DNA from: Mobula birostris
Lineage: Eukaryota
Direction of reading: 5' to 3'
Assembly: GCF_030028105.1 (NCBI RefSeq)
Contig: NC_092379.1
Span: forward strand, 44,564,150-44,628,149
DNA length: 64,000 bases
Position numbers and translations under genes: made by a program. Positions 1 through 56,284 of the stretch are shown piece after piece (position 1 is the first letter of the stretch; every line of letters begins with the position of its first letter). The notes below the pieces were generated by a model. That model was not told where the DNA came from. It saw only the letters and a list, made by a program, of their open reading frames with translations, and did no database searches.

Positions 1-745
1 TACCGCATAGCCCTCTATTTTTCTAAGCTCCATGTACCTATCTAAGAGTCTCTTAAAAAACCCTACTGTATCCATCTCTACCACCTTTGTTGTCAGTGCA
101 TTCCACACACCCACCACTCTCTAGGTGAGAAACTTACCTCTGATGTCCCCCTTATACCTACTTTCAAGCACCTTAAAACTATGCTCCCTCATGTTAGCCA
201 TTTCAGCCCTGGGAAAAAGCCTCCGGCTATCCACACGATTAATGCCTCTCATCATCTTATACGCTTCAACCAGGTCACTTCTCATGTCCTGACTAATCAA
301 GAATCTATCAACCTCTCTGCCCTGAATATACCCAATGACTTCTCCTCTGTGACAATGAATTCCACAGATTCTCTGGCGAAAGAAATCCTTCCTCATCTCC
401 ATTCTAATTCGACAAACCTCTGTTCTGAGATTGCTTCCTCTGGTCTTAGGCTATCCCATCATAGAAAACATCCTCCCCATATCCACTCTAGAGGCCTTTC
501 AGTATTTGACAGGTTACAATGAGATCCCTCCCCCTCATTCTTCTGAATTCAAATGAGTACAGGCACAGAGCCATCGAACGCTCCTCGTACGACAAGCCTT
601 TCAATCCTGGACCTTTCAATCACTTTCGTGACCCTCCTTTGAACCCACTCCTGTCTTGGCACACCCTTTGTTAGATATTGGGCCCAAAACTACCTTCAAT
701 ATTCCAAGTGAAGCCTTATAAAATGTGAACATTACATCCTTGTTT
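1..745 (-). mobile_element. Two adjacent CR1 LINE 3'-end fragments (degenerate)
   Basis: Minus-strand translation DLVEAYKMMRGINRVD...FPR...HSFKV and MRKDFFRQR match the C-terminus of CR1 ORF2 (compare the intact copy at 53009-54295). Confidence 0.8.
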
Positions 746-1204
746 TGATACGCTAGCCATCATTGGTGGGGTCTGAACCTGGAGCAAGTGTGAACATCTC
801 CTTGGCTGCAGATGTGAAGGTTTATTTCCAGGAGTCACTGGACAGTAACCAGAAGAGAAGCTTACTCAACACCAAGGAGCACACGTCCAACCGTTAACCA
901 GAAGCTAGGTGAGGGTCAAAGTGTCCATCCCAGCTCCCCTTCAGCGTACCATTTCTATACAACTCTGGCTCCTTAGTACAGGAGGATACTGCGGACTGCG
1001 TCAAGCCTTTTGCCCGGGATACTTTAGGTTGGAGGAATATGAAAGGACACACACTGATTAAACAGTTCACTCTTCAGGCAAAAGCCTCAAGATAACCACC
1101 TTCTTGGAGGAGCACCTCCAGCTGGAGTACTGGAATGGTGTAATCATGCCAATAGATTGACAGGCACTGCTTCCATCTACTGTGGACAAAGGAACTTTAT
1201 AAAG

Positions 1205-1278
1205 CAGGGGCTCCCAACCTGGGGCCCCTCGGTTGATGGTAGGGGGTCGATGGCGTAAAAGAGGGTTGTGAACCCCGG
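1205..1278. mobile_element. 74-bp hAT-type MITE
   Basis: Imperfect TIRs CAGGGGCTCCCAACCT / GGGTTGTGAACCCCGG. Flanks TTATAAAG (1197-1204) and TTACAAAG (1279-1286) form a 7/8-identical 8-bp TSD. Confidence 0.7.
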
Positions 1279-1789
1279 TTACAAAGGTGAACAGATGGTG
1301 CAGACTACGACAACAGAAACTTTGCAAGCAGGAAGTGGCATTAACAAGGCGTAGCATATTGAGTACGTAGACATATTAACCGGATACAACTCAGTTCTTT
1401 GCCACGGACACACCATCCATACTAATCTTTCCCACCTCCAGCTCATCCATACAGTAAAATGCAAGCGGTAATGTGGGGGTGGGGGGGGAGGTGTGAAATC
1501 ATGCAATTGCTCCAGTGAGCGGAATGACAGACAGCCTGTTACCGGAATGAGCCAAGTGCTCTCCGTTATTTCACACACTGCCATGACGTGTGGGATACAG
1601 AGGCTCCTCAGTACAAGCAATTGATACACATGTGACTTAAAGCCAAGGTGACAGCAGCAGCTTCAGCAAGATAAATCATGACAAGCCATGGGGAATAAGA
1701 TCACCTTTCTTCACTATAATCCACGCTTCCCTCATCCACGTCACCTGCATTCCCACCCCACAAGCCTTTCCAGCGCATCAGTGTCTGTA

Positions 1790-2197
1790 GCCCCCACCAG
1801 CCACAATAGACTCCCAGACTAATCTCAATCCTCCGCTATCTGCAAGGGGTCTCTGCCACTAATCACACCCCCCTTCACCCACCCCACCCTTCAGGTTTCC
1901 ACGCCACTCATTCATCCTCGCCGCTCTCCCCGAAAGCAAGACAAGGTCTACACTCGCCCATTTGCCTCCGTTCAGGGCTGCAAACAGTTCTTGCAGGCGA
2001 AGCGGTGCTTTCCTCTCGGGGCTATTCGCTGTATCTGGAGCTCCTGCCGTGGCCTCCTCGACATCGGAGGACCAACACAAATGGGGTGGGGGGGGGGGGT
2101 TCTTCATCGAGCACCTTCTCTGGGTCCGCTGAGACAGCCAGGGTATCCCAATGGCCACCCACTTCAATTTGACTTCCCGCTGCCACCCCAGTGTCTG
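1790..2197 (+). mobile_element. Penelope-like element relic, GIY-YIG endonuclease region
   Basis: Frameshifted translation [43 protein letters not shown] resembles the PLE motifs VIYCIRC..CGLLYIG / RF.EH / PVA.HFN. Confidence 0.7.
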
Positions 2198-2213
2198 CTC
2201 TACAACTACATAC

Positions 2214-2361
2214 CTGCTCATCAGAAGCCAGGGAAGTGAAGAGGGGTATAATGTCACTTTTCAAAAACTCCAGCTCCACAACCTTTGCAAATTCACCCAA
2301 CTTTGATGCTGCTGCCTGGCGGACCACTGGTGTGTCATCTGAGCACAAGCTGTGGAAAAGT
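2214..2361 (-). CDS. PPP2R1A/B: PP2A scaffold (A) subunit-like exon, equivalent to PPP2R1A exon 5 (HEAT repeat 5 region)
   Basis: tttctgcag| (Q)[49 protein letters not shown] |gtatgt; 148 nt, phase 2 to 0. Closely matches recalled PP2A-A sequence and exon size. Diagnostic residues are mixed between A-alpha and A-beta. Confidence 0.93.
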
Positions 2362-2529
2362 CTGCAGAAAGAATAAAATTAAAGGTCACATAGGAGTAGT
2401 CGCCCATTGATGCAGAACTTAACAATTCGCAAGCAGAAATACAAGCACTAAAAATTGACATTTTTGCAATTAATGTTTCTAAATCAGAAGCTAGTAAAAT
2501 ATTTTGCTGAACCCATCATCATTATGTGC

Positions 2530-2910
2530 TGCGTCATATGCTATGGGTGGTCACGGTCTTTCCATGACCCTGATTGTTCTCCGTAAAGTTTTCTACAGAA
2601 GTGGTTTGTCATTTCCACCTTCTGGGCAGTGTGTGTCTTTACAAGGTGGGTGACCCCCAGCCCATTATCAATACACTTCAGAAACTGTCTACCTGGCGTC
2701 AGGGGTCGCATAACCAGGACTTGTGATCTGCACCGGCTGCTCATCCACCACCTGATCCCATGGCTTCACCTGACCCTGATCGGGGCGGGGGCGGGGGCGG
2801 GGGTGGGGGGGGGGTGTATCTAAGGGGTGCTACACCTTGCCCAAGGGTGGCCTGCAGACCAGCAGAAAGAAGCCTTACACCTCCTTTGGTAGAGACGCAT
2901 CTCCACCACA
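2530..2910 (-). mobile_element. RTE-related short interspersed element (copy 1)
   Basis: Reverse-complement homolog of 3665-4035; contains the Bov-A-like 3' motif GAAGG..ATG.CAAACCACTTC. Confidence 0.6.
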
Positions 2911-3664
2911 CCATCCAAAAATCCAATATTTGTGGTATTCAGTTTTTATCCTGAGAAATACTTCAAGATAGCAACAGAACATAGAAATTTACTGAACATT
3001 ACAGGCCCTTCAGCCCACAATGTTGTGCTGACCACGTAACCTACTCTAGAAGCTGCCTAGAATTTCCCCACCATACAGCCCTGTCTTTTTCTGAAACAAC
3101 TGACTGTGTCTGAAAGTTTACACAAATGACACCACAAAAAATTTTAATTCAGGGAGTAAAGCGGCTGGAAGTGAACCCCAGATATGGGACTCCTGCACTT
3201 GGAGCAGAACAGAGCCATTGGTTGTGGACTGCAGGGGCACACAGTTACCAAAGCAACCTTCTCGTCCGACAAAACTCAAACACCTCTGAACAGGTGAAAT
3301 CCTCTGCGCGCCAGATTAATCAAAATGGCCCTGAAGCAGAGCAACAGGCTTGACAAGACACGGCTCTCAAAAAGAGCACGCCTTTGTAAATGACAAGGCC
3401 ACTTCAACCCCACAGCCGAGAGTAAGCGATGAGCACCACTCCACTCTGATGCACCTCGGCTTTTGCTCCTTCCTCACTAAAAACACACAAAAAACCTTCA
3501 GTTTATGTCATTAAAAACAAAAATGCCACACTTTCTGTGCTATTTTGGGGCTGATTATTCTCTAAACTAGAAACTTCTACCCACTCAGTTAAAACAAGGT
3601 CCTGTCCACCATGGTGGTAGCATCTTATCGCCAATAAAACCAAATTATACCGAAATTGGGTGGC

Positions 3665-4035
3665 AGGAAGGAAATACGTCCCTGCCAAAGGAGGTGTAAG
3701 GCACTCCTTCCCTCCACTGGCCTGCAGGTCACCCTAGGGCAAGGTGTAGCACCCGCTTAGCCTCCCCGATCGGGACTACGTGAAGCCGTGGGAGCAGGTG
3801 GTGGACGGTTGTATGAGCAGCAGGTGCAGATCTCAACTCCTGACACTGACACCAGGCAGACAGTCTCGGAAGCGTATTGATAATGGGCTGGGGGTCACCC
3901 GTCTTGTAAAGACACACGCTGCCCAGAAAGAAGGAGATGGCAAACCACTTCCGTAGAAAACTTCGCCAAGACAATCGCGTCCACGGAAAGACCCACGATC
4001 GTCCACACCATACGACACGGTACATAATGAGCGAT
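3665..4035 (+). mobile_element. RTE-related short interspersed element (copy 2)
   Basis: Shares GGAGGTGTAAGG, CTTGTAAAGACACAC and CAAACCACTTC.GTAGAAAA with the inverted copy at 2530-2910. Confidence 0.6.
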
Positions 4036-4131
4036 ACTACAGAATGTAGATTTTCTACAATAATACTGTAATATTCCTAGCTAACTTCTATCATGTTCAT
4101 CTGCAGCATTCCAAGGGAGGAAAGTACTTAC

Positions 4132-4364
4132 TGACGCAGCTCGGTCTTTACAGAGCTGGATACCCGAGGGTAGCAGACACTGAAAAGGCTGCATGCCGAA
4201 GTCCTGGACGTGAACCAGTCACCACAAGTCAGGCGCTTGACCAGTGGCACAAAGTGGACTTCTAGGTCTGCAGGAGAGTGCTCGTGGGAGATGGCTCGCA
4301 GTGAATCGATGGCTTTATCTCGTACTACCGATTTTTCCACCGTTGCCAGGTTCTCCAAGGGAGG
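4132..4364 (-). CDS. PPP2R1A/B: PP2A scaffold (A) subunit-like exon, equivalent to PPP2R1A exon 4 (HEAT repeats 3-4)
   Basis: cccactaatcag| [77 protein letters not shown](Q) |gtaagt; 233 nt, phase 0 to 2; joins 2361 in frame. Confidence 0.95.
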
Positions 4365-4796
4365 CTGATTAGTGGGAAAGAATTAAACTGAAACACATCT
4401 TCGTTTTACTCTACCTCTAAGAAACACAATATTTAGAAACAATCTTTAAGATAAATTCTTAAATTGCTGAGAATTAGGAATTCTCATAAAGAAAATGAGA
4501 CAGAGAAACATTTAAAGGTAGAACAATATAGAGCCGTGCTGGAGGACAAAAGACAAACTATCAAGAACTGTATAAATCAAAGGACATATTTTCTCAATCA
4601 CAGAAATTCCCAAGATTCCTAACCAGAAAACACTGTAGTAATATTAAATGGAAATTACACTGACACGTTCCTAATTATCAGTAATTACTATTTCATCTTC
4701 AAATTAAGTACCAATAATTGTTCATCCTATGAGGTTTTAATAAGCAAATAAACATGAAGCTGCCTGTCATAATAATTTTGCCAAAGTTTGAGGGAA

Positions 4797-5662
4797 GTCC
4801 ATGGTCATCCACTTTGTTAGAAGAAATAAAAGTGTAAACTACTTTCTAAATTGGGAGAAAATTCAAGAATCCGAGGTGCAAAGGGACTTGGGAGTCCTCG
4901 TGCAGCATTCACTAAAGGTTAACTTGCAGGCTGAGGAAGGCAAATGCAATGTTAGCAGTCATTTCGAGAGGACTAGAATATAAAAGCAGGGATGTAATGT
5001 TAAGGTTTCATAATGTATTGGTGAGGCATCATTTAGAGTATTATGAGGAGATTTGGGCCCCTCATCTAAGAAAGGAGGTGCTGACATTGTGCAGAGTTTC
5101 AAGGAGATTCACAAAAATAATACTGGGAATGGAAGGCTTGTCACGTGAGGAGTGTTAGATGGCTCTGGGCCTGTACTCGTTGGAGTTCAGAAGAATGAGA
5201 AGAGACCTCATTGAAACCTATGAAATGTTGGAAGGTCTGAATAGAGTGGATGTGCAGAGGATGTTTCCTATGGCAGGGGAGTCTAAGGCTAGAGGACACA
5301 GCCCCAGAATAGAGAGATATCCTTTTAGAATGAAAATGATGAGGAATTTCTTTAGCCAGAGGGTGGTGAATATGTGGAATTCTGGGCCACAGGTGGCTGT
5401 GGAGATCAAGTCATTGGGTATATTTAAGGCAGAGGTTGATAGGTTCTTGATAGGTTCATGGCATCAAAGGTTACTGGGAGAAGACTGGGGAGTGGGGCAG
5501 AGGAGGGGAAAGAAGGATCAGCCATGATTGAAAGACAAATTGATAAGACTCTTGATTAATCGCAGCATGGAAGGATACAGGGAGAAGGCAGGAGATTGGG
5601 GCTGAGAGGGGAAAATGGATCAATGGGCCAAATAGCCTAACTCTGCACCTATATCTTATAGA
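4797..5662 (+). mobile_element. CR1 LINE 3' fragment
   Basis: QRDLGVLV, LVRHHLEY, LYSLEFRRMRRDLIETY and FFSQRVVNMWN motifs broken by stops and frameshifts; CR1-type 3' UTR. Confidence 0.9.
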
Positions 5663-6024
5663 ACTATTCAAACAACAACTGTGCCCACGTTTCAGTTTAG
5701 AATTGCAGGCATCACAGAGGCTCCTAGAAAACGTTTCTGAATTGCTATTTTCTGTAATACAAAGCCACGCCATCTCAGCGTTCTTCAAGAAACACTGCTA
5801 AGAGTTTGTGATATTTTATATACAGCCTCCACCCACACATGAGCGAATTGGATTCCTTACGTAAATGCTTTAAGAATTCTCTGCCTGTGCTCGCAGGTAA
5901 TTTTACACAAAAAGAAAACATTTTTGAAAGGAGTATCAATACAAAAGAATGTACACACTCTACACTCAACATACTGAACGCTGGAATGTCTAATTTGGAA
6001 CCACTGCAAACAATAAAGTAAAAC

Positions 6025-6630
6025 ATGGAACAGTACAGTGCAGAAACAGGCCATTCAGCCCACAATGTTGTGCTGAACCAGCTAAAAAGAAAATCAAAAA
6101 CCACCAAGAACTAATCCCTCCTACCTACACTATGTCCATCTCCCTCCATCTTTCTCATACCCAGGTGCCTATCCAAAAATCTCTGAAAAGCCTCTACCAT
6201 CATAGCAGTCAATGTATTCCAGGCATCCACCACTCTGATGGTAAAAAAACTTACCCCTCACATCCCCCTTGAACCTACCTACCCACTCTCACCTTTAATG
6301 CATACCTCTGGTATTAGACATTTAATTCCTGGGAAACAGATACTCCTCTCTACTTTATCTATGCACATGCTTCTCATAATTTTACAAACCTCTATCAGAT
6401 CTCCCTCGGCCTCCAGCGCTTCAGAGAAAACATAAGTTTATCCAGCTCTCATGATCGCATGTCCTCTGAACGAGGCAACATTCTGGCGAGCCTCTTCCGC
6501 ATCGACCCCAAAGCCCCAACATCTTTCCTATAGTGGGACAATCAGAACTGCATGTAATACTCCAGACGTGGCCCACCCAGAGTCTGATAAAGTTGCAGCA
6601 CTTCCTCTAAAGCAGGCAGCATCCTGGTTA
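6025..6630 (-). mobile_element. CR1 LINE 3' fragment
   Basis: Starts with the reverse-complemented CR1 tail (catggaacagtacag..aggccattcagcccac) followed by degenerate ORF2 C-terminus. Confidence 0.75.
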
Positions 6631-7075
6631 AACCTCATTGATCGAGCTACTTTGGTGGTTTCATTAATCGATTTCATTACTTTAATTCTGAATTGTCCTG
6701 TGATGAACTGATCACTGAAAATTATTTTAATTTGAACTATGCCCTGTAATAGCCTGAGGCCCTCGTTATATAATTTCAGAATCTTGTTCCCCATTACGGG
6801 TATTTAAAAACAATACAAGTATGTTATTTTAAATAAATATTTGATGCATAGGACCATTGCATCTGGGCATTAAAATCTGTGTTTTGTTTCCCCCGGTTGG
6901 GCTCATGTTGAACGTATATTTGGTCAATACAGAGCAGAGGTTTCAGTGTTCGGGGGATGGTATCAGTCCGTGTAGGTTTTCCAACAGGCTGCGCGGGTGA
7001 ACCTGGATCAGGGGTAGAGTAACTACACTTCACTGTAGCAATTCTCAATGATACACCCCTCCAATATTTCAACCA

Positions 7076-7209
7076 GGTCCTGAAGAAGGGTCTCGGCCAG
7101 AAACATCGACCGCTTACTCTTCTCCACAGACGCTGCCTGAGCTGCTGAGTTCCTCCAGCGTTTTGTGAGAGTTGCTTTGGATTTCCAGCATCTGCAAACT
7201 TTCTCGTGC
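7076..7209 (+). mobile_element. Penelope-type terminal repeat with a degenerate minimal hammerhead ribozyme (7076-7111)
   Basis: GGTC-CTGAAGA-A-GGG TCTCGG CCA-GAAA-CATC-GACC, followed by the family tail gctgcctgagctgctgagttcctccagc...ttccagcatctgca. Confidence 0.75.
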
Positions 7210-7758
7210 CTACAAATATGTTGGGGCAGCACAAAGCCTCATCTGCCTCAAAGATTTTATTGCAAACAATAAAAGCAGAGAGGGTTCTGTATGTGTCCAT
7301 TTACCCCTCATTCAAGCAACCCATCATAACAAAGAAAGATTACAGGGACATTGCCTGGTCTGGAGGACCTGAGTTATATGGAAAGATTGAATACGTTAGG
7401 ACTTCTTTTTAACTTGGAACATAGAAGATTGCAAAGAGATATGACAGAAGGAGACAAGATTATGAGGGGTTGAGATAGGGTAAATGCAAGCAGTCATTGT
7501 CCCCTGAGGTTGGATGAGACTGCAGTTGAGGGTGATATGAAGGATCTTCCAACAATGGAACAAAAACAAAAAGAATAACATTAGATCAAGTCCTTTGAGT
7601 AAACATATACTTAATTTCCTCAACAATTTTCCAAATTAAACAATGAATATTGTGGATAGCAAATTGACTTTGGAGTAGTATATACATACAACTTTCTTAT
7701 TGCCCTAATCAAAGACTGGCAGGACAGTCAAGGTAAGAAGGTATAACAATAATCTTAC

Positions 7759-7868
7759 CTCTAGTTTTTTAATGAGTCTGGCCTCCTGTGCCTTCAATCT
7801 CTCCTTCTGATACTTTTCATGTTCTTCCTTCAATTTGTCTACAATAGATCTCTTGTCAGATGCTGTCT
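7759..7868 (-). CDS. CEP350: CEP350-like coiled-coil exon, second internally deleted copy (exon E)
   Basis: ccctaacag| (E)TASDKRSIVDKLKEEHEKYQKERLKAQEARLIKKLE |gtaaga; 110 nt, phase 1 to 0. Resembles recalled CEP350 ETTSD...KSVVNQLKKEQKKRQKERLKAQEASLIKQLE. Confidence 0.8.
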
Positions 7869-10693: not shown

Positions 10694-10773
10694 CCTTTTT
10701 AACAAAGCAACTCAATGACACATTAGATCCTTCACCCTCAGGAAGCGATTTCCAGCTCTTTTCAGATTCAGTC
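10694..10773 (-). CDS. CEP350: CEP350-like exon D
   Basis: ctttttgttttcag| (R)TESEKSWKSLPEGEGSNVSLSCFVKK |gtacgt; 80 nt, phase 2 to 1. Resembles recalled CEP350 RSETAKNWKSLTESERSRGSL. Confidence 0.75.
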
Positions 10774-11432: not shown

Positions 11433-11563
11433 CTTTGTAGAGAAAGTGGTTCAGCCTTGGGCTTCTCAGCAGCAATGGAGGAAGGGGTTTTGATTTGTGG
11501 TTTGGTGGAACTGGACACTTTGCTTAGTTTTGCTGGAGTCCTTTTAATCGATCCATCACAGGA
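11433..11563 (-). CDS. CEP350: CEP350-like exon B
   Basis: ttctttctcttgtattaccag| SCDGSIKRTPAKLSKVSSSTKPQIKTPSSIAAEKPKAEPLSLQ |gtaatg; 131 nt, phase 0 to 2. Resembles recalled CEP350 SYDEFIKKTEAELS...TAKPQIKTLSSASEKPKIKPL. Confidence 0.8.
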
Positions 11564-12619: not shown

Positions 12620-12777
12620 CCTTAGTTCGTTAATGAGCCTGGCCTCCTGTGCCTTCAATCTCTCCTTCCGAAGCTTCTGCCCTTTCTTCAATTTGTTTAC
12701 AACAGGTTCATGTTTCCTCAGATCATCTTTCAGTGCATGAATCCTGCCCTCGATGTCACTCTGCTCAGATGCTTTCT
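12620..12777 (-). CDS. CEP350: CEP350-like coiled-coil exon A
   Basis: cccgaacag| (E)KASEQSDIEGRIHALKDDLRKHEPVVNKLKKGQKLRKERLKAQEARLINELR |gtaaga; 158 nt, phase 1 to 0. Strong match to recalled CEP350 SDQSDIEGRIRALKDELRKRKSVVNQLKKEQKKRQKERLKAQEASLIKQLE. Confidence 0.85.
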
Positions 12778-14607: not shown

Positions 14608-17011
14608 TGTCATATGGCGGTGGCTGGGAACGGGCCCAAGTGCAAGACACAGACACTGAACTACTAGGGACAGGACTAGGATACAGGGCGATGGCAAGGA
14701 CACGGACAGGAAAACCAGGAACCTGGAACAGGACTGAATAAGAGAGCTAGGAGCCCGGGCTTGGTCTCCGAGCCATAAACTGGACAAGGACCCAGTACCT
14801 GGGTCTTGCCTCTGGCTCGGACCCCAGAACTAGGCAAGTATGAGGCTTGGCAGGCAGGCAGGACGACGCTGGACTTTTCAGGCTTGAGGCTAGAGACTAG
14901 AGGCAAGGCTTGGCAGGAGGCGGGAGGCTGGAGTCTTCAGGCTTGAGGCTAGAGGCCAGAGACTTGGCTTGGCTTGGCTAGAGGCTAGAAGCCAGAGACT
15001 TGGCTTGGCTTGGCAAGAGGCTAGAGGCTGGCGTCTCCAGGCTTGGGGCTAGACAGGAGGCTGGCGTCTCCAGGCTTGGGGCTAGACAGGAGGCTGGCGT
15101 CTCCAGGCTTGGGGCTAGACAGGAGGCTGGCGTCTCCAGGCTTGGGGCTAGACAGGAGGCTGGCGTCTCCAGGCTTGGGGCTAGACAGGAGGCTGGCGTC
15201 TCCAGGCTTGGGGCTAGACAGGAGGCTGGCGTCTCCAGGCTTGGGGCTAGACAGGAGGCTGGCGTCTCCAGGCTTGGGGCTAGACAGGAGGCTGGCGTCT
15301 CCAGGCTTGGGGCTAGACAGGAGGCTGGCGTCGCCAGGCTTGGGGCTAGACAGGAGGCTGGCGTCGCCAGGCTTGGGGCTAGACAGGAGGCTGGCGTCGC
15401 CAGGCTTGGGGCTAGACAGGAGGCTGGCGTCGCCAGGCTTGGGGCTAGACAGGAGGCTGGCGTCTCCAGGCTTGGGGCTAGACAGGAGGCTGGCGTCTCC
15501 AGGCTTGGGGCTAGACAGGAGGCTGAAGTCTCCAGGCTTGGGGCTAGACAGGAGGCTGGAGTCTCCAGGCTTGGGGCTAGACAGGAGGCTGGATTCTCCA
15601 GGCTTGGGGCTAGACAGGAGGCTGGAGTCTCCAGGCTTGGGGCTAGACAGGGGGCTGGAGTCTCCAGGCTTGGGGCTAGACAGGGGGCTGGAGTCTCCAG
15701 GCTTGGGGCTAGACAGGGGGCTGGAGTCTCCAGGCTTGGGGCTAGACAGGGGGCTGGAGTCTCCAGGCTTGGGGCTAGACAGGGGGCTGGAGTCTCCAGG
15801 CTTGGGGCTAGACAGGGGGCTGGAGTCTCCAGGCTTGGGGCTAGACAGGGGGCTGGAGTCTCCAGGCTTGGGGCTAGACAGGGGGCTGGAGTCTCCAGGC
15901 TTGGGGCTAGACAGGGGGCTGGAGTCTCCAGGCTTGGGGCTAGACAGGGGGCTGGAGTCTCCAGGCTTGGGGCTAGACAGGGGGCTGGAGTCTCCAGGCT
16001 TGGGGCTAGACAGGGGGCTGGAGTCTCCAGGCTTGGGGCTAGACAGGGGGCTGGAGTCTCCAGGCTTGGGGCTAGACAGGAGGCTGGAGTCTCCAGGCTT
16101 GGGGCTAGACAGGAGGCTGGAGTCTCCAGGCTTGGGGCTAGACAGGAGGCTGGAGTCTCCAGGCTTGGGGCTAGACAGGAGGCTGGCGTCGCCAGGCTTG
16201 GGGCTAGACAGGAGGCTGGAGTCTCCAGGCTTGGGGCTAGACAGGGGGCTGGAGTCTCCAGGCTTGGGGCTAGGCAGGGGGCTGGCGTCGCCAGGCTTGG
16301 GGCTAGGCAGGAGGCTGGAGTCTTCAGGCTTGAGGCTAGGCCAGAGACAAGGCGAGGCTGGAGGCTGGAGACTTGAGGCGAGATGAGGCTGGGGGCTGGG
16401 GGCAGGAGATTTGAGGCGAGGCTGGAGGCAGGAGACTTGAGGTGAGGCGAGGCTGGAGGCTGGAGGCAGAAGAGTTGAGGCGATGCTTGGCAGGCTCCTC
16501 CTGGGCTGGGCGTGGATCTCCTGGGCAGGGCGCGGATCACCACCCGACAGAGACAAGGGACAGGAATGGACAGAAACAACACCCGGTAATGGCAAGACGG
16601 CCTGGCTTACCTGGGCAGAGGCAAGGGACAGGAAGGGAGCTAGGTACAGGGTGGCTCCAGGACAAGCCTGCTGGCAAGACGAGGTGAGTTTACCAGCAAG
16701 ACAAGGCAAGGCTTCTGGCAAAGCAAGGCGAGACGAGAACTTCAGGCGAGGCGAGGGTTACCGGCAAGACAAGGCAGGGCTTCAGGCCAGGAAACAGAAG
16801 GCAGGAGATGGGATACAAGGAGTACGGACAAGAACAATTCAGCAGTCACGCCTGGGTCTCTGAAGGTATTTATGCAGCCAGCCCCAACGAGCATCAGCTG
16901 CCTCAATTAGCTCAACAAGAACAGAAACAGGGTAGATAGGAAAACCTGGAGCAAGTGTCGATGGACCGGGCCGTGAACCGGAATATGGACTTCACGGACC
17001 GGACCATGACA
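14608..17011 (-). mobile_element. Solo LTR expanded by an internal minisatellite
   Basis: Termini TGTCAT...ATGACA; 5-bp TSD CCTTG / CCTCG; host LINE continues on both sides; TATA-like CATAAATA on the minus strand near 16870. Confidence 0.8.
15026..16325. repeat. 33-bp GC-rich minisatellite, about 39 copies
   Basis: Unit GGCTGG(C/A)GTC(T/G)CCAGGCTTGGGGCTAGACAGG(A/G); explains the 11-aa periodic ORFs in four frames. Confidence 0.97.
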
Positions 17012-28005: not shown

Positions 28006-29555
28006 GAAACATCCACTGCACCTCTTCCTATAGATGCTGCCTGGCCTGCTGTGTTCACCAGCAATGTTTATGTGTGTTGCTCATTATTTTGCCGACTGAA
28101 ATATTTCTCAATTTCTTTTGACATTTGAGATACCCATTAAAGACTATTAGATCAGCAACATCACACACAAAATGCTGGAGGAACTTGGATTTCCAGCATT
28201 TGCAGATTTTCTCGTGTTTATACAATCTACGCAGTTTTATCTCCTGCATCCATTCATCTGCCTATTTTGAGTACTGTATTTATTCCTGTAGCCGGTTTGC
28301 CTCTTCCTTTGCAGACTGAAATATTTCTTCTCAATTTCTTTTGTCCTTTGACAAGATTTGAGATGCCCATTAAAGACTGCTACATCATACAAAATGCTGG
28401 AGGAATCGGCCAATTTCTGTTGGACTGAGCGGGTTGAGCAGTTTGTAATCAACAAGGGGATGTTTGTCTCTCCGTATTTTTGGTCTTGTAGGAGCTGCAC
28501 TGCATTTGCAAATATCGTGTTTATAAGGGTGATTCATCAATTGATTGTCTGCATTTTTATGTGAGCAGTTTTAAAGTTAGGTGCAACAATAAAGCATTGA
28601 CTGATAGTAACACTTTAGCAAATGTGAGGAGTTCTGTGTTGAAAGAAGAAACAGTTATGGATATTTAAAAAAAAAGTCTACAATATGACTATATGCAAAG
28701 CAGAAAGAAATCGTTGCTAAGCCAATGAATAAGATGTGGTGCTTCATCGTTATCAATACTGTAAAATATATTCTATTACATCTACATCTGACTCTGTTAC
28801 AGACATCTGACTACGGCATCGAGTTTGCTGCTCGATGTTGAACCACTCTCCCGTTTCTCTGTGATGGACTCAACGGGAGGCATCATGTCTGACTGTGAGG
28901 TTGTGTCAGACTGCGCTGTATCTGTTGGAATCAGTCAATGTTCTGATCTAAAGTCAGTGAGGTGGTAAATGCTGGAATAGGGAACAAACTCGGGGAATGC
29001 TGGCAACACTAAGCCCCAAGCAGCTTGTGTGGAAAGAAAAACCAGTTAACACTCATGTCAGGGGTGTCTCTGAGAACAGTTCTGAGGAGAGATACTTTAA
29101 CTGTATTCCCACATGTTCTGGTTTACCTGTATCAGTGTTTCCAGCATTTCCTCTTTTGTTCCGTCCTTCGGGGGATCGCCATGGAAGTTGATGATTGTCT
29201 GATGGAAGAATCCTGCCATCAGCGTCCGGATTTATTCATTTCATCCAGACGAGATGCAGAAGGTGCCGGTAGAAAATGTTCCATCCAGTATTGACTCTCA
29301 GGAGGTAGCTACTCAGTTTTAGATTTACGCTGCCACTTCGCATTCCGCTCATCAGTAAGGAATCCGTATCCAGATGATATTGAATTTATTTTACTGTGTA
29401 AACTCATTCTCTGTCCCGCCAGTTCTGCGCCCTCTCTCGACCCTCTCACCGCTAAATGCAACAATAAAGTGGAAATATTACAGGACCCCCTCAAGCTGCA
29501 GCATCGGTTTCTGCTCAGTATTTTCTCAACTTGCTGTTCCCTGTCTCTCTTCCAG

Positions 29556-30456
29556 CGAACTTGGTGGCAATTGTGATCCTGTCCCTGGAGAAGTGCGGTC
29601 TCTCCAAATGTGTCACTCATTACCTGGTGGGAATGGCAGCGGCTGATCTCCTGGTCGTTATCTCCGATCCGTTGCTGAGGGGAACTGCTGTGATTTATTT
29701 TCCCCGATCATTCCTGCGAACCACTCCTGTGTGCAGACTTGGTCTATGGTTGATTTTTGCGAGCACCGCTGCCTCAGTCTGGCGGACTGTCGCTTTCACC
29801 GTCGATCGATTTGTGGCTATTTGCGGTGAGGAGCTGAAAACAAAATATTGCACGGAGAGAACGGCGGCTGTGGTTATCGGGACAATGATTATGCTGGCCT
29901 GTTTGGAGACTGTCCCCTGGGGCTTTATATCCGGGCCTGGAGAAATAATTGATGGTGTTCCCTGGGAATGAGTCCTTACACAGAGCTTCACAAACTCTCC
30001 CTCATGGGCCGCATTTGACATGTTTGACCTCATCTTAACCCTTGTGTCCCAATCTTTCTGATGTTGCTATTCAATATTCTGACTGTCAGGTGGATTCTAG
30101 TGGCCAGTCGAGCCCGCAGGAGGCTCCGGGGACAAAAGAGTAGAGAGAATGACAAGGACTGGGTGATGGAGAACCGACGCAAATCCATCGTTTTGCTCTT
30201 CAGCATAACCAGTAGTTTCATATTGTTGTGGGGAACATACGTGGTATTTTCTATCTGTAAATGGATTTCAATGAGTTTTGTTTATTCTGCCACGGATCCC
30301 TGTTACATCACACAACATACATCAGAAATGCTGCAGATTCTCATTTCCTGCACCAACACGTGTATTTATGTCCTGACTCAGAGCAAGTTCCGAGAGGAAC
30401 TAAAGAATGCGGTGAAATACCTACCGAATCGGATTTTGAAACTCATGAAACATTAG
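29556..30456 (+). pseudogene. GPR139/GPR142-like class A GPCR main exon, disabled
   Basis: ctctcttccag| ANLVAIVILS..KCGLSKC..YLVGMAAADLL, FTVDRFVAIC, KTKYCTERTA, ENRRKSIVLL, SCTNTCIYVLTQSKFREEL. In-frame TGA at 29969-29971 and a -1 frameshift near 30040. Upstream exon not identified. Confidence 0.88.
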
Positions 30457-41938: not shown

Positions 41939-42259
<321 letters not shown>

Positions 42260-42290
42260 AAATCTCACTTCCTTCCTAGCACGAAACAAA

Positions 42291-42331
42291 GGCTCTTTTA
42301 AGAGCCACCCACCGCCTCACAGACGGAGCTG
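42291..42331 (+). terminator. Histone 3' stem-loop and downstream element (H4)
   Basis: AAA GGCTCT TTTA AGAGCC ACCCA, then purine-rich AGACGGAGCTG. Confidence 0.95.
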
Positions 42332-42783
42332 CATCCACACACATTTAATTATTTTTTATCGATATATTCAGCTGAGTTACATTTGCAACAGATTAATCGG
42401 TTCCGCTTGAAATCTACCTGCGAACCTGCCTTTCCAGTCCGTGATTACAATAAAATCTGAATGCATTAAGGTCGATCCTTTTATCCGTCTCGGACAGAAA
42501 TAAGTTCACTCGTTTAGAGAAACGATTCCGTAATTATGCATTTAAATCTTAACTGAGGGATTTAGATATTAAATGAAAGTGAATTTGTATAATCCGTGAT
42601 AGAATTAATTGTAAATAAAAATAATCGGGCAGTTGCTGGCTGCTCTGAAATTGGCGGGCGATTTGAAATTAATATCGCGCTAATCACACTGCATTCTGAT
42701 TGGATGAAGTCCGACCGCCAGTTAACAGTGTCCCATTTGGCCCTTAATTGTTATTCGCCGTCAGCCCGCATGAAATGAATCAA

Positions 42784-42870
42784 CCAATCGCAGCAACTAG
42801 ATCCTTTAATAGACACCTGATGTAGAGCCAATCAGAGGCGATGGGACGGCCCTTCTCAAACAGTATATAA
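42784..42870 (+). promoter_or_regulatory. H3 promoter
   Basis: CCAAT at 42784 and 42828; TATATAA at 42864-42870. Confidence 0.8.
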
Positions 42871-42934
42871 TCATGTCCCTGAACCTGTTTCGTCTATCTT
42901 GGTCCTGTATTTCAGTTTGTGTTGTCGGTTCTGA

Positions 42935-43351
<417 letters not shown>

Positions 43352-43380
43352 ATCCGACCTCCACAACAAACACAAGAAAA

Positions 43381-43396
43381 GGCTCTTTTAAGAGCC
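43381..43396 (+). terminator. Histone 3' stem-loop (H3)
   Basis: AAAA GGCTCT TTTA AGAGCC AC. Confidence 0.95.
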
Positions 43397-44220
43397 ACTA
43401 CCACAGCAAAGGAAAGGCCTGTCGCTTGCTGATCATTGTATTGGCGATCTGCCCTCCTGATGAGGTTGTTCGGTTTTGCACTGACTGACCGCGGTCATCA
43501 GCTGTTCTGTGCCGACAGGTTGATTCAGCGAGGGACAGGAGATGAACGGGCTCCCTCCCCGTCAGGGTCTCACCTGGCCCTTCACTTCTCCCACAAACCT
43601 GCCATGTACAGCTGCTGCGCCTGTTCCGTTTTGTTTGCTTTGGATATGCCCGGCTGTCCTTGGAGTGGGAGCATGCGCTCGCGATGGGGATTTTCGAGTC
43701 TGGTGACCCCAGGCAATAGTGCTTCTTGTTTTTTTTTAAAATTTGATTTCACTCTCCAGTACATATTTAATGTTGGTGTTTTGTGTGAATAAACGTGTAG
43801 TTTTGTGGGTCATACCTGATTGAAGGTCAGTCAGCAATATCACCGGGTAGTTTATCATATATCTTCCCCCTGCAGTCCATCCCCAGAGACAGATCCCCCT
43901 CTCAAGACTCCCCCAACCCTCTCACATAGGTTTCAGCAGTTCCTAATCAACTCAGCTGAATCGGGCCTTGGGATGCGAGGTGCGGAATCTCCGTCACGCT
44001 CTCCTGGAGCGGGAGAAGGAACTGGGCCTGCAGACCACCCCACCGGTCTCACTCTCTCTCACTCACACACAGCCCGAGTGAAACGCAGTGTTTCACTTCA
44101 AATCTGCGACGTCACGGCGGCACTGAATGTCAGCAAGGTACCGGGAATATCGGGTTTTATGCGAGAAGTTCCCCCGGAAAACTCAGTCGGACCCGCATCG
44201 GGAATCACAATGTTCATGAT

Positions 44221-44259
44221 CAGCTCTTTTCTGAGATGTGGGTGGCTCTGAGAAGAGCC
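44221..44259 (-). terminator. Histone 3' stem-loop and downstream element (H1)
   Basis: Minus strand GGCTCT TCTC AGAGCC ACCCA (44244-44259), then AGAAAAGAGCTG. Confidence 0.95.
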
Positions 44260-44295
44260 GTTGGGTTCAAACACTTACAAACGGTATATCTCAAT

Positions 44296-44908
44296 TCACT
44301 TTTTGACTGCTGTCTTCTTGGCCGCCGCCTTCTTTGGGGCTGCGAGTTTCTTGGGGCTCTTTGGCTTAGCTGCCGCTTTTTTTGCCGCTGGTTTCTTCGC
44401 TGTCGCTTTCCTAGCCGCTGGTTTCTTCGCTGTCGCTTTCCTAGCCGCTGGTTTCTTAGCTGTCGCTTTCCTAGCCGCTGGTTTCTTGGCGCCAGACTTC
44501 TTGCTGGGAGATTTCTTTGCCGATGGCTTGTTCGCTTTCTTCACCACTTTCACGGCACTTTTTCCTTGACCGGATTTAAAGGATCCCGAAAGACCCGCGC
44601 CCTTGGTCTGAACCAAGGAGCCGCTTTGCACTCTTCTTGATGCACATCCTGATCTGGGCGCGACGTTTCCCCACATCTACACCGCTGCCGGTCAGAGCCT
44701 TCATGATGGCCATAGCGGACATACCCTTCCTATCGCGGCAATCCGCCACAATCTTATCGATTTGTTCGCCCAGCTTGGGACCGGCTGGTTTGCTCCGGCC
44801 GGACGTCTTCCTCCCGGGGGTCGTCTTTGCGGCGGCGGGTGCGGCTGGAGGAGCCGTTTCGGCGGGTGCGGCTGGAGGAGCCGTTTCGGCGGGTGCTGTC
44901 TCGGTCAT
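44296..44908 (-). pseudogene. H1: Histone H1-like gene with a frameshift in the globular domain (~44630)
   Basis: MTETAPAETAPP...GPKLGEQI..RKGMS..KAL..GVDV..IRMCIK, then shifted [19 protein letters not shown] and a Lys/Ala/Pro tail. Span is 613 nt (3n+1). Confidence 0.88.
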
Positions 44909-44969
44909 GTCGGGAAATCCTTCTCACAATTACAACTGAATAAGAAATGAAGCGAAAGGCGGCGGCATA

Positions 44970-45050
44970 GAGCATTTTAAAGGCAGCGAGCGGACGGGGC
45001 GGAGACATCCTCCTGTCAGTTCCTGGCGGCTTCATTTTTCTGTGTTTCTC
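44970..45050 (-). promoter_or_regulatory. H1 promoter (TATA-like, GC box, H1/AC box)
   Basis: TTTAAAA near 44978, GGGGCGG at ~44996-45002, AAACACA on the minus strand at 45041-45047. Confidence 0.75.
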
Positions 45051-45484
45051 TCTCGTCAAAAACTCTCCGATTCCAATTAAAATCGGACACTCCGGAGACT
45101 CGGACTGGTTCCTGTCCGTCACTGAGGCCGGAAAGTTCGCTGGAAAGAGTGTTTAATCGGGATTAAAGGCAGCACTTTCTATTTTAACCCGTTTAATTAC
45201 TGCACTGCCCGCAATCTCTCTCCATATTGTTGACCTGTTCTCTGCTTTTCGGCTGAAATTTTGAAACTAGCTAAAACTTTGTGGTTAATTCTCGCTTCGG
45301 GACTGAGCTGGGGAGAGGGGCGATCCCGTAACAGAGAAATCTTTTCTTTTTGTACAGGAGGCGCTGGGAAATCCGGCGATGTGTTCGGACCCACAAACAC
45401 AGTGATACTCGTCTAAGCCGCCCGCCGCTTTAAAACACTCTCTCTGAATCAGCAAGTCAGGCAGCATCAATGGTGAGAATAAAC

Positions 45485-45520
45485 AGTCGACATTTCGGGT
45501 TGAGACCCTTCATCAGGACT
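45485..45520 (-). ncRNA. Minimal type I hammerhead ribozyme motif in a Penelope-derived hairpin element (45450-45600)
   Basis: Minus strand AGTC-CTGATGA-A-GGG TCTCAA CCC-GAAA-TGTC-GACT, enclosed by a perfect 19-bp inverted repeat (45450-45468 / 45530-45548). Confidence 0.7.
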
Positions 45521-45719
45521 CTGGTGGGAGATGCTGCCTGACTTGCTGGGTTCCTCCAGCATTTTGTCCGCGTTGTTCGCGATTCCCAGAATCTCTTTGG
45601 CGTTATGCTGACACAATGTTCACATCTGCACCTTCAGAGGCCTGTACTGCTGTCAAAATTAAACGACAGGTTCCTCGTCAGATAACACGGTGATAAATCT
45701 GATTCTGATTCCAAGGAAT

Positions 45720-48700
45720 AAAGGACAAAGGACATTGTCTGGCCAAATTGACTGTGTAACTGAGAACCTCGGGTCCGGGAAATATACCTTAGAAATCTTT
45801 TCTACACTCTCCCCAGTTTAACCACGTTTCCTATAACGGTGACAAGAGCCGTACACAAATCGGCAAGTGTAGCCTCCGGGCATTTACACAACTGTAACAT
45901 AATGTCACAACTGATATACTCTATTCCCTGACTAATGAAAACCAGCATATTAAACCCCGTTCTTCACCACCCTGTCTACAGGTGACACAACTTTCAATGA
46001 ACTGTGTGTGCACTTTACTCTTAAATCTCTCCGGCCCATTCCACTCCCCAATGACCGATCATTCATAGTGTAAGTTCTATACTGGTTTGACGTTCCAATC
46101 TGCACCGGTTCACACTTATCTGAATTGAAATGCATTTGACACACTTGGCCCTCTTCCCTAAGTGATCACGATCACCCTGTAATCTGCGACAACCTACCAA
46201 GTAAAGTTGAGGGAAGTTATTCCAACTCATTAATAAACTTTTTTGTGCACTGGCATTGATCAGTGAAGGTGATTAGTATCAAAATCAAGTTCATTATCAC
46301 GGAGATATGTCATTAACTTTGTTGTTCTGCTACAGCAGTACAGAACAATTTCTAAAATAAAATACCAGTTAAAATAAGAAATACAGAATTAACTAAATCG
46401 TGTAAAAAGAGAATCAGGGAGGGGTGTGAGTCCGAAGATGAGAATAGGAAACCTAAAACTTTGTCCATTCTTGCCTCTTTTCCTCTTCATATATCTGAAA
46501 ATAAATCTTTTTGTATCTTGTTTCTATTATGGGCCAGTTACTTACATAATTCATCTGACCTCTGCATATTGCTATTATAGTTATGCTATGTTTTTTTTAA
46601 AAATTTCATAATTCTTTAGCTTCCCATTAAATTTGATGATATTCTTTGCCCTCTCTATGCTGCCTTTGTCTTCTGTTGTTAGCAATGGTTGCCTCATCCT
46701 CCCTTTTAAATACTGTTTCTGCTGAGGGATGAACCGATCCTGTGTCTGCCAAATTTCTCCTGGAGACTGAAACTTTTCATACAAGGTAATATGAGGAAGT
46801 TGAAATGCCCAACTGCTGTAAGCTTGTTCCCATTACACCTCTGTGTGATTTACCAACATGTCTGCCGCACAATATCTGAGCCTATTGGGAGGCCGGCAGT
46901 ATAATCCCATCAAAATCATCATTCATCATTTTATTTAAAACCTCTACTTACAAGACCTCATCAAAACCCCTCTCATTCCTGCAGTGTTGGTCTCCTTCAT
47001 CAAAGATGCAACATCCTCCATCCATAACGTAGCCTTTAAATGTTTCCCCTTCACCTTAAACAATTTCCCTGTAAATTTAGGCTTCCCTACCCTGACACAA
47101 AGAGTGCTCACCTACTGATTTTGTAAACCTCTGGACGGTCACCAGACAGCTCCTTACTCTCTCAGGAGAGAGAAAGCGAGTCCCAGTCTGTCCAAGCTTC
47201 TGCAGATAATTAAAGTCCTCCAGTGTCACAGTAACATCCTCATCAAACTTCCCTCCACACTTTCCAGCTTTGTGACATCCTTCCTGCAACTGGATGACCA
47301 GAACTGTGCAAAATAGTGTGGTCTCACTTTGACTTTTACAGTTGTCATATGGCATCCCAAATTCTTTACTCAGTTCCCTGATCAATGAAGACAAATAGGC
47401 CAAGCACCACCTTCACCATCCTGACTACCTGTGTTGTCACTTTCAGTGAATGATGTTTCTGTATTCCATGGTCTCTCTGTTCTGTAATACTCTCCAAGGA
47501 ACAAGAATTTACTGTGCAGATCCTTCCCTGGTTGAACTTCTCATAATGCAACACCTCACACTTGTCCACATCAATATCCTTCTGCCATTCTTTGGCTGAC
47601 TTCCCCAGTTAATCTCAATCCTATTGTACTCTCACACAATCTTCACAGTCCACACTACCACCAGCATTGCTGACATCTGCGAACTCACTGTCACTACAAT
47701 GTCAGAGAAATTGTTAATGTAGATGACAAATGACAGTACCAGCACTGATCCCTGTGGATGTCACTGGTCAGAGGCCTCCAACCTGAATAACAAGCTGCCA
47801 TGACCACCCTTTGTCTCCTTCCACCAAGACAAGTATCTTGTCTGGCATCCCCTCTGCTCTAAATGTGTAATACAAAAGAAATAAAGATTAAATCAAAATA
47901 TATCTACCTACGGCCTACATCTCTCAGAAGAGACGAAACCTCAACTCCCCACTCCAATTCTGGCCCACTCATACAATGACCGCTCTGGTTAAATCTAACT
48001 TCTTTTTATTGGATCTTGCCACGTTCCGAATTATGGGCAGTCAAACGTTTCCTTGGGAACTGTGACATGCAAAATGTGCCAACTGCTCATGTTCTCTTCA
48101 TTCAAACCCCCTCTCCCTTTACATAATCTGATGACTGTGTGGGACTGTGGCACTCAAAACTGTGGGCTGCAGGAAACCAAAGTACATGCCTGCGCTGTTC
48201 TACAAGGCCACAAATGATTTAAAAAACACTGTATAACAAACACTGGAATTCCCCAGCTGAGATGAATGGGGAAGCTGGATAACTGAAAAGATTCAAAGAA
48301 AAGGAAGGTAAATGTTTTGTAAAATCAGGGAAGTGGGATTGACATACAAGAAAGGCTGATGGCAGATCAGCCTTTATATGGAATTGTGGGTGAGGGACTA
48401 AGAGAGGACACACTGAAGGGTTCATCCAGTGAGACAACGTGGATAGAGCTCAGGATAAGAGAGGTGCATTCACTGATGGGGTTGTATCACAGGCCTCCCA
48501 AATGCCAGCAGGAGATAAAGGAACAGAAATGTAGCAGGTAATGAAAGATGTAAAAGCAACAGGGTAGTTGCGGTGGGTGACTAATTTCCCCAATGTTGAC
48601 TGGGACTCCTGTAGAGTCAGGGGCTTAGATATCACTGAATATGTTAGAAGAATACTGGGATGTTACTGAACATAGAAGTGGATAGTCTAACCTGGGAAGG

Positions 48701-51700
48701 GGGTCATAGAAAACATTGTATTGGGAAATGAGCCTGGCCATTGATAGAAGTTTCATTTTGGGAACAGTAAATAAGGATAAGACTGGACCCGGTGGTAATG
48801 TGGTCATTTGGGGTACAGTTAATTGCAACTGTCTACATTGAACATGTAAATGATGCTTAAAAGCAATCGGGTCAGAATTCAGACAGAACTGTTTCTACGG
48901 GGAGGAAACACAAGGATGGTAAAGTCTGGCAGAGGGGCATAGTGAGAGATGGTATGAATTCAGACTGAAATAAAATGAAGGATAAGGAATATTTCAGAAG
49001 TAGAAATTGGAGAAGACCTCTGGCAACATGAAGCAAGCAAGGGAGAAGTTAGAGAGAGAATCAGAAGTGTGAAATGGGAAGAAGAAATAACTTTGGTGAG
49101 AAGGGGCACTGCGGAGAGGGTACGACAACACAAGCACAGAGGAGAGAGTTTATGTCTGAAGTGTGCGAGGGACTAAACCAGTACTTCTCATCAGTAATCT
49201 TCAATGTGGTCATGGAGGATAGTGAGATAAGAGAATGGAATGCTGATATTCCAGAGCATGTTGTTCCTCAGGCAATGGAGACAAACAGGAAATTATAGAT
49301 TGGTGAGATTTGGATCAATGCTCCGGAAATTATTTGACAATATTATTAGAGGTAGGATTTCTAATAAAAGTTAGGAGGGTAAAAGGAGGATATCATGATT
49401 CAGAAGGCAAAGTGAGCAAAATCCAAGAGATTCTCTTGGTATATTCATAGGACAAGGTAAGTTAGACACAGAATTGTTCCCCTTGGAGGTGAACATGGCC
49501 ATCTGTGTGTGGAGGCAAATGAAATAGGAGAGGCTTTCCATGAATATTTCTGACAGTTATTTCACCATTGCAAAAATTCTTTAAGGTTGTTAAATCTCCT
49601 GGGCCTTAACAGGTACATTCTCGTACTTTGTGGGAAGCTGGAGAATACACTGTGGAGGCCAGGGGAGAGATTATTTTGCTTCATCTCAGGCACCAGTTGA
49701 GGTTGCACACGATTGGACAGGGTGACTAATGTGGAATTGATAGTTTTGAGGGCAAGACTGTGCATGATACGAAGAGGTAGGCAGTGTTGAGGAAGCAGGG
49801 AGTCTGCAGTAGCACTTGGACAGATTTAGAGAATGGACAAGGAAGTGCCAGATGAAATACCGTGTAAGGAAGTGTGTGGTCATGTACTCTGGTAGGAGGA
49901 ATAACAGCCTAGGCTCTTTCTAATCAGGGAGAGAACAGAAATCAGTTGTGCAAAGGGTCTCAGTGCACGATTCCTTAAAGGTTAATGTATACATTGAGTT
50001 GGTAGTGAGGAAGGCAAATGTAATATTTGTATGCATTTCAAGAGAACTAGAAAATAAAAACAAGGATCTAATGCTGAGGCTTTGGTCAGACCTTATTTGG
50101 AGTATCATGAGCAGGGGTGGGTAACTTTTCTAAGAAAGGATGTGCTGGCATTGCAGAGGCTGTAGTGGAAATTCACGAGAATGATCCCAGGACTGAAAGA
50201 GTTAGGATATAATAATCATTTGATGATCTGGGCCTGTACTCATTGGATTCTAGAAGAATGAGGGAGAATCTTATAGAAACACATTGAATATTGAACGGCC
50301 TAGATAGCATTGATGTGAGAGGATGTTTCTAATAATGGAGGAATCTAGAACCAAACCACACCCTGAATAAAAGGTGCCCCTCTAGAAGAGAGATGAGTAA
50401 TTTCTTTAGTCAGAAGGTGATGAATCAATGGATTTCATTTCCACAGGCAACCATAAAGGCAGTCAGTAGGTTTATTTAAAGCTGAGATTAGTAGATTTTT
50501 AATTATTATTAAGGGTATCAAAGTTTATGGGTAGAAGGCAGGAGAATGGGGTTGAGAGGGATATATGATGGAATGGCAGAACAGACTGAATGGGCCAAAA
50601 GGCCTAATCCTGCTCCTATGACTTCAGGACTGATGGTTAATGCGGTGCCATTGTTTAAAAAGGGTAGTGGAAACTACAGGTCCATCAGTCTGTAATATGT
50701 TGGAAGAGTTTCTGATCCACCAAAATTTGGTTTGATTCAAGACAGTCAGCACAGTTTTGTGCAAGGGAAATTATGTCTGGTAATTTCTTGCAGCCCTTTG
50801 AGGGGTTTCACAAGGGCGTAGATGAGGTTAGAGCTGTGGATGTTGTCTATATGGACATTAGCCAGGCCTTTGACTATAGTCTGGAAGGTTAGATCTAGAA
50901 AATGGAATCTGGGGAGATAGTTGATCGATTCCATAATTGCCTCCGTGACAGGAGGCAGAGGCTGATGGTTGAGGGTTGTGTCTCAGACTGGAGCTGTCTG
51001 TCTAGTGCTGTGCCACTGGGTGGCGGGACCTTTGTTGTTCGTAATTTATATAAATAATGTCCATGTGAATGTATAGTTCACTGAAAGTGACATCTCAGCT
51101 AGATATGGTGGGGAAGATGGTGTTTGATTTGCTGGCCTTCATCATTCATGTCACTGAGTACAAGAGTTGAGAAGAAGTGTTGCAGATACACAAATCTTTG
51201 GTGAGGACTGATTAAAGGAAACCATGCTGACTTTGGCCTATTTTTTCATGTGTTGCAAAGTACCCGAGAATACATCCTTGACAATTGACTCCATCATCTT
51301 CCCAACCACTGAGATCGGACGAGCTGGCCTATGATTTGCTTTCTTCTGCTTCCCCCTCTTCTTTAAGAGTGGATGACCTTTGCAATCTTCCTGTTCTCTG
51401 GAACCACACCAGAATCCAGAAACTATGGAAAGATTATTACTAAAGCTGCCACAATCTCTTCAGCCACATCTTTCACAGCACTGGTGTAGACAATCTGGTC
51501 CAGGTGAATTATCTACCTTCAGACCTTTCAGTTTCCCAAGGACCATCTCTCTAGTAAAGGCAAAATTACTCATTTCTGCGCCCCGATTCTCTTGAATTTC
51601 CAGCAGACTGTTAGTGACCTCCCCAGTGAAGACTGATGCACAATACTTATTCAGTTTGTCTGCCATTTTCCTGTACCCCATTACTACCTCTCCAGTAACA

Positions 51701-52526: not shown

Positions 52527-52540
52527 AACACATCAAAGTT

Positions 52541-54380: not shown

Positions 54381-54419
54381 TGAACACAGCAAGCCAGGCA
54401 GCATCTCTAGGAAGAGGTA

Positions 54420-54457
54420 CAGTCGACGTTTCAGGCCGAGACCCTTCGTCAGGACTG
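54420..54457 (-). ncRNA. Minimal type I hammerhead ribozyme motif, intact core (Penelope terminal repeat)
   Basis: Minus strand CAGTC-CTGACGA-AGG GTCTCGG CCT-GAAA-CGTC^GACTG: 5-bp stem I, 3-bp stem II, palindromic ACGT stem III, GUC cleavage triplet. Confidence 0.8.
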
Positions 54458-56268: not shown

Positions 56269-56284
56269 GGCTCTGAAAAGAGCC
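56269..56284 (-). terminator. Histone 3' stem-loop (H2A)
   Basis: Minus strand AAA GGCTCT TTTC AGAGCC AC. Confidence 0.95.

Follow-up and report, generated by a model that had tools for sequence, protein, structure and literature searches.

The window analysed here, a 64,000-nucleotide stretch of the Mobula birostris genome, carries at its left end part of a duplicated PP2A scaffold gene on the minus strand, in which exons and introns derived from PPP2R1B are preceded by exons derived from CEP350. Residue numbers were fixed by alignment to 589-aa human A-alpha chains in the PDB. The features, with the four substitutions placed by that alignment, are as follows.

1..7525, minus strand: duplicated PPP2R1B introns and exons, introns ~9% diverged from the parent on contig C24
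2214..2361, minus strand: PPP2R1B-derived exon 5 (human residues 168-217), with H169L, R171H, M180V, R183Q and L196V
2318-2316, minus strand: R183Q, CGG to CAG, a CpG site
2327-2325, minus strand: M180V, ATG to GTG
4132..4364, minus strand: PPP2R1B-derived exon 4 (human residues 91-168), with S95N, E101K, T102S, V109I, A136T, G149S and A164T
4331-4329, minus strand: T102S
4334-4332, minus strand: E101K
7520..7530, no strand: deletion junction, ~1.25 kb removed including exons 2 and 3
7759..7868, minus strand: CEP350 exon A', exon A repeated but 51 nt shorter through an in-frame deletion
10694..10773, minus strand: CEP350 exon C
11433..11563, minus strand: CEP350 exon B, 3-nt in-frame deletion
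12620..12777, minus strand: CEP350 exon A, 3-nt in-frame deletion, starting in phase 1

Exons 6-10 and 12-15 of this copy lie beyond the left edge of the window, the gene reaching about -34 kb. The copy lacks exons 2, 3 and 11 and carries S219L, and 2 nt are deleted from exon 12, such that reading from exon 10 runs into an early exon 12 stop; with these disabling lesions, it is a pseudogene.

Elsewhere in the window, positions 41939-58010 hold one set of histone genes (H4, H3, H1, H2A, H2B). H3 and H2B are intact, the first Met of H4 is changed to Thr, and H1 and H2A lose their frames. The stretch upstream of H3 is 93% like copies on contig C33 and has a single match on C12, the contig that bears the scaffold copies, and the histone set therefore looks like a stray copy. 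Co-amplification of the scaffold copies with histone clusters was considered and rejected, as 39 of the 40 scored matches to this upstream stretch lie on C33 and one on C12. A 7tm_1 GPCR gene at 29468-30456 is broken into two frames, with a relative bearing a 310-aa frame ~57 kb left of the window (L029:1813-2742). Long tandem repeats occupy 14900-16500 (30-bp unit) and 58700-59900, and a degenerate zinc-finger-like fragment without a Pfam match lies at 62402-62890.

A sequence-only reading of the window had proposed that the scaffold exons carry equivalents of human disease substitutions in loops that bind regulatory B subunits. On the minus strand, VEKSVVR occupies 4340-4320, where VEETVVR is expected, and the 11-residue counterpart of DDTPMVRRAAA begins at 2339; D139-W140-F141 is intact, with DWF at 4220-4212. 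Alignment to the PDB chains thus bears out all four substitutions (E101K, T102S, M180V, R183Q) together with the kept D139-W140-F141. As human disease variants, M180V and R183Q are established, but E101K and T102S are not. The two ordinary scaffold genes of this genome (C24:53.32 Mb and C10:0.21 Mb) both carry VEETVVR and DDTPMVRRAAA. Base errors do not account for the changes: K101/S102 occur in 76/76 copies and V180/Q183 in 65/65 copies possessing exon 5, and a contig from DNA run X1, which may be the assembly's own sample, covers 2171-2365 with 0 differences, depth in X1 being ~1450-1800. All 18 fixed changes of the N-terminal half are also present in two protein models of a second Mobula assembly, which sit on a 135.9-Mb contig and bear extra damage (W140R, D61V). 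At 28 fixed sites, a Callorhinchus model has the parental residue at 23, the derived residue at 1, and another or a missing residue at 3-4. That the changes are an assembly artefact, or simply the normal residues of this lineage, can be put aside with near certainty: the region is highly repetitive, but the parents are normal, the changes are fixed, DNA contigs match, and the copies differ from one another. The earlier reading had taken the changes as a property of this one copy; instead, they are inherited throughout a family of 76, of which the window copy is a broken member. Neither the CEP350 fusion nor the amplification was visible to that reading.

A genome search with exon 4 yielded 78 matches among 89 candidates, comprising the two parental genes, 75 copies on C12 and one on C565. 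The C12 copies span 35.1-44.8 Mb, plus one at 53.6 Mb, with a median spacing of 121 kb and 37 on the plus and 38 on the minus strand. They are intron-containing duplicates of the 15-exon PPP2R1B gene on C24: exons are collinear, exon 4 shows 91% identity to C24 versus 79% to C10, and the introns, which likewise resemble C24 more than C10, align to C24 at 85-91%, with 741 of 8024 aligned bases differing (~9%). Exon 1 (residues 1-26) matches only C24 and C10 (2/2 candidates) and is absent from the duplicates. Pfam HEAT and PPP2R1A-like_HEAT domains are detected; the full set of 15 HEAT repeats of a functional A subunit is not, as the exon-1 helix is missing. A neighbouring copy has exons 2-15 complete, with no indel and no stop. 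On average, copies differ from one another by 2.4% in introns. Exons 2-6 are clean in 47/75 C12 copies (the C565 copy being excluded), 12/75 have no visible exon 2/3, and 39/75 are damaged. At most 36/75 look intact, with clean exons 2-6 and full exons 9, 10, 12 and 13; as these are the exons checked per copy, the number is an upper bound. Database sources label the copies "A beta isoform-like".

Several further features of the array were seen. About ten close, opposite-oriented pairs of exon 4 lie 5-6 kb apart on C12 at 35-45 Mb (for example L077 and L108), one partner being without exons 2-3 and the other without exon 5. The intron after exon 12 contains tandem repeats of that exon's 3' end, with a unit of ~84 bp (C24:53282641-53282706 and C12 copies), once in the parent and seven times in the neighbouring copy. 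Additional CEP350-exon copies are scattered through the C12 array. More diverged partial copies of CEP350 exons and/or of PPP2R1B exons 9-13, all lacking exons 4-5, occur on C19, C39, C3006 and C1163 and at C16:115.99 Mb, C20:81.6 Mb and C12:50.4 Mb.

Four lysine-rich CEP350-derived exons occupy the place of exon 1. For their parent, on C16, matches to vertebrate CEP350 reach 93%. The captured exons derive from just upstream of the CEP350 CAP-Gly exon, the fourth (A') being a shortened repeat of the first (A). In the neighbouring copy, the order A, B, C, A' followed by PPP2R1B exons 2-15 makes one open frame by splice phase; fuller copies have A', whose end is in phase 0, joined to exon 2, and the three indels of the CEP350 part (3, 3 and 51 nt) are all in frame. 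Contigs from runs X13 and X19 join A' to exon 2, in agreement with a chimeric gene, although the RNA status of these runs is guessed. In the CEP350 part, 49 nonsynonymous and 22 synonymous changes separate the copies from the parent (pairwise dN/dS 0.94). Exon A opens in phase 1, and an additional upstream exon is therefore required. Inspection by eye of the frames in the 50 kb that precede the neighbouring copy revealed transposon-like frames and a GPCR frame, but no convincing first exon with an ATG. The first Met lies no earlier than residue 245, with none in the CEP350 exons or in exons 2-5, and database models of the copies begin with several different N-termini. An Atlas search with the N-terminal part gave no usable match.

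Spliced contigs of the family were found in three runs (X13, X16 and X19) that we presume, by guess, to be RNA; none of the runs listed as containing the sequence is annotated as RNA. In X16 (organism A), a 227-nt contig joins derived exons 4 and 5 with 0 differences and spans V180/Q183; its depth is 28.5 versus 980 for the parental spliced contig, contig depth being a poor gauge of level. X13 and X19 (organism B) yield the 368-nt contig joining A' to exon 2, and exon 4 is spliced to exon 5 in X19. X13 and X19 also have contigs over parts of intron 5 (L085:1709-2929), similar in depth to those of the derived exons, which may represent read-through into this intron.

To ask what selection acted before amplification, the state shared by the copies was compared with C24. 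It differs by 33 nonsynonymous codons and 38 synonymous bases among 563 codons, a pairwise dN/dS of 0.41 with intron-derived, CpG-aware rates. For exons 7-15 the 33-change set rests on two copies; a stricter 28-change set, obtained after sampling 27-29 top-scoring loci for exons 8-10, 12 and 13, omits I395V, R398H, H454R, S543T and E559K. Introns have lost 85 CpGs in the copy versus 45 in the parent, an asymmetry that places ~60% of the divergence on the copy branch. Branch dN/dS depends on this estimated share, running from 0.83 (whole gene, P=0.16) at a share of 0.5 to 0.55 at a share of 0.75. A neutral stem would be expected to gather 1.9-2.9 stops and 1.6-9.5 frameshifts, and the probability of finding none is <=0.03 under all nine settings. 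Conservative replacements prevail among the 28 fixed changes (mean BLOSUM +0.46 versus -0.36 under neutrality, p=0.0045). The pre-amplification gene thus looks constrained on frame and fold. Against this reading, conserved sites (>=90% among homologues) were not spared during the stem, being hit by 26 of the 33 changes, with 25.1 expected by chance.

We then analysed whether the changes cluster on the B-binding surface. An AlphaFold model of a mammalian A-alpha supplied the loops, and a "ridge" was defined as the loop plus five residues, set to include R183. With the 33 changes, 5 fall in strict loops versus 3.2 expected (p=0.21), 11 in all 15 ridges versus 8.3 (p=0.19), 7 in the HEAT2-7 ridge versus 3.8 (p=0.074), 2 on the 13 paper-listed contacts versus 1.0 (p=0.27), and 3 on the C-binding ridge versus 2.7 (p=0.53), where L496H and V536I lie. 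With the 28 changes, the HEAT2-7 ridge holds 7 versus 3.2 expected (p=0.034), all ridges give p=0.14 and paper-listed contacts p=0.22. Adding to these contacts A41, F54, D57 and Y60, with F54 and Y60 as B55 contacts, gives 4 versus 1.1 (p=0.022, 28 changes). That two of 28 changes match human disease variants exactly has P=0.04, calculated post hoc. Loop clustering, a check proposed in the earlier reading, is hence borderline, with p 0.02-0.34 depending on definition, and correcting for how many definitions were tried would leave no clustering p-value significant. At the neutral rate, 4.5-6.8 changes are expected in the HEAT2-7 ridge and 7 are seen (P 0.17-0.52); in the rest of the protein 35-53 are expected and 21-26 seen, corresponding to dN/dS of 1.0-1.55 on the ridge and 0.40-0.74 outside it. 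Among the 13 paper-listed contacts, M180 and R183 are changed in all copies and 11 are kept; V15 is absent. Such mild ridge enrichment is expected if the ridge was released and the fold remained constrained, and adaptive change would also produce it.

Since amplification, per-copy selection is weak or absent. Alleles of exons 2-6 among the copies comprise 67 nonsynonymous, 33 synonymous and 2 stop changes (dN/dS-like ratio 0.89), with neutral BLOSUM scores, and the 36 intact-looking copies give 0.91, without purifying signal. Disease-type alleles are present at low frequency, namely S219L in 2/73 copies (one being the window copy), R258H in 2/73 and P179L in 1/65, indicating that human hotspot alleles recur once constraint is off. 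Relaxed selection, one of the options of the sequence-only reading, applies to the B-binding ridge and to the time after amplification, but not in the form of a simple neutral pseudogene, as the stem shows constraint on frame and fold.

Single mutants of human A-alpha, as described in the accessible parts of the cited papers, are the basis for extrapolating what the residues would do to subunit binding. M180V retains binding of B55-alpha, B56-delta, STRN3 and C, and abolishes that of B56-alpha, beta, gamma1, epsilon and PR72 (PMC7862067), whereas R183G/Q/W weaken B55 and B56 binding and raise striatin binding (PMC9707111). The statement that both impair B binding is accordingly correct for some B families, but M180V keeps B55-alpha and STRN3. 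In the HEAT3 loop, named earlier as a B contact at E100/E101, the contact listed in the parts seen is E100, not E101 (PMC3698643, PMC1945078), and E101K appears there only inside engineered multiple mutants (PMC3900686). The STRN3 pocket is placed at V15 and A41 (PMC11126936); V15 being missing with exon 1, the striatin gain of R183 mutants is doubtful in the chimera and a striatin-biased scaffold unlikely. Of the "lost or re-tuned" B binding suggested previously, loss is likely, while re-tuning finds no support in a HEAT2-7 ridge evolving at about the neutral rate. The combined residues would predict a scaffold unable to form most holoenzymes. The family shares M180V and R183Q exactly with human PPP2R1A variants, M180V by the same base change (c.538A>G), as given in the portions available (PMC7862067, PMC9707111), but unlike there, both sit in one molecule and are fixed in a duplicate beside a normal parent, together with ~26 other fixed changes.

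Collectively, a PPP2R1B gene was duplicated with its introns from C24, lost exon 1, acquired in-frame CEP350 exons, was amplified and had its changes fixed, and the window copy was broken. We favour, with a probability of about 0.6, the reading that the changes belong to a shared Mobula CEP350-PPP2R1B family and accumulated likely as B binding was no longer needed, with the HEAT fold likely selected. The ancestral fusion protein would have been made and folded, its coiled-coil tag standing in for the first helix. It would have failed to recruit B56 or B'' (M180V, R183Q) or B55 (R183Q), and probably striatin too, the V15 pocket having gone with exon 1. Such a protein would be a B-less scaffold with at most the C subunit bound through HEAT11-15.

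An exon-1-less duplicate that was dead on arrival, never translated and drifting neutrally as a transcribed pseudogene carried by segmental amplification, would fit the missing start codon, the chance rate of hits at conserved sites, the neutral variation among copies with 39/75 damaged, the dN/dS of 0.94 in the CEP350 part and the CpG transition behind R183Q. Against such drift stand a frame open over ~2.2 kb despite ~9% intron divergence (P <=0.03), the conservative substitutions (p=0.0045) and the deficit outside the ridge, as well as splice phases that agree across the fusion and a junction present in contigs, and we regard it as unlikely. Adaptive re-tuning, in which ridge changes were selected for a decoy or self-targeting scaffold and amplification raised its dose, draws on the nominal ridge p-values (0.034, or 0.022 with the B55 contacts added), the post hoc P=0.04 and the 36/75 intact-looking copies. 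A CEP350-related paper, in the part available, also calls PPP2R3C a functional partner at the distal centriole. We consider such selection improbable, as the ridge rate is not above neutral, all 15 ridges give p=0.14-0.19 and the paper-listed contacts p=0.22-0.27, the key contacts W140, F141, P179 and W257 are kept, intact copies lack purifying signal and the second-assembly models are damaged further. Quite doubtful, too, is a translated Mobula fusion whose coiled-coil tag replaces B recruitment, carrying the C subunit to centrosomal partners or titrating it in a dominant-negative manner, and which, in one lineage, selection for dose multiplied into dozens of intact copies. Centrosomal targeting by the captured fragment is a guess, since the centriole-length function maps, in the accessible text, to the CEP350 N-terminus (PMC9623370), whereas the captured exons lie near the CAP-Gly exon.

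The favoured family shares exon structure 2-15 and HEAT repeats with PPP2R1B (A-beta) and PPP2R1A (A-alpha), but differs in the absent exon 1, the CEP350 N-terminus, the B-contact changes and the ~75 copies, half of them broken. Young chimeric families amplified by segmental duplication are known from primates, including USP6/TBC1D3, NBPF, NPIP and the truncated antagonist SRGAP2C. Like these, the ray family combines an exon-shuffled fusion, later amplification in both orientations and a mix of intact and broken copies; unlike them, it joins an essential phosphatase scaffold to a centrosomal protein, in a ray, with a predicted product and no demonstrated signal of positive selection. Young amplified chimeric duplicates are a known type of object. 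We found no published description of this family among the openly accessible papers listed on the Mobula genome and segmental duplication and on PPP2R1B or PP2A scaffold duplication.

The disease-like residues are mostly a by-product; of more interest is the fusion family, with its putative protein product. PP2A scaffolds rank with the best-conserved proteins of animals, and a B-binding-defective fusion present at ~75 copies over 10 Mb is unusual. If translated, it would be a natural experiment on the role of a B-less scaffold. If not, it would show human hotspot alleles recurring once constraint lifts, and one decaying family would account for many of this genome's "PP2A A beta-like" annotations.
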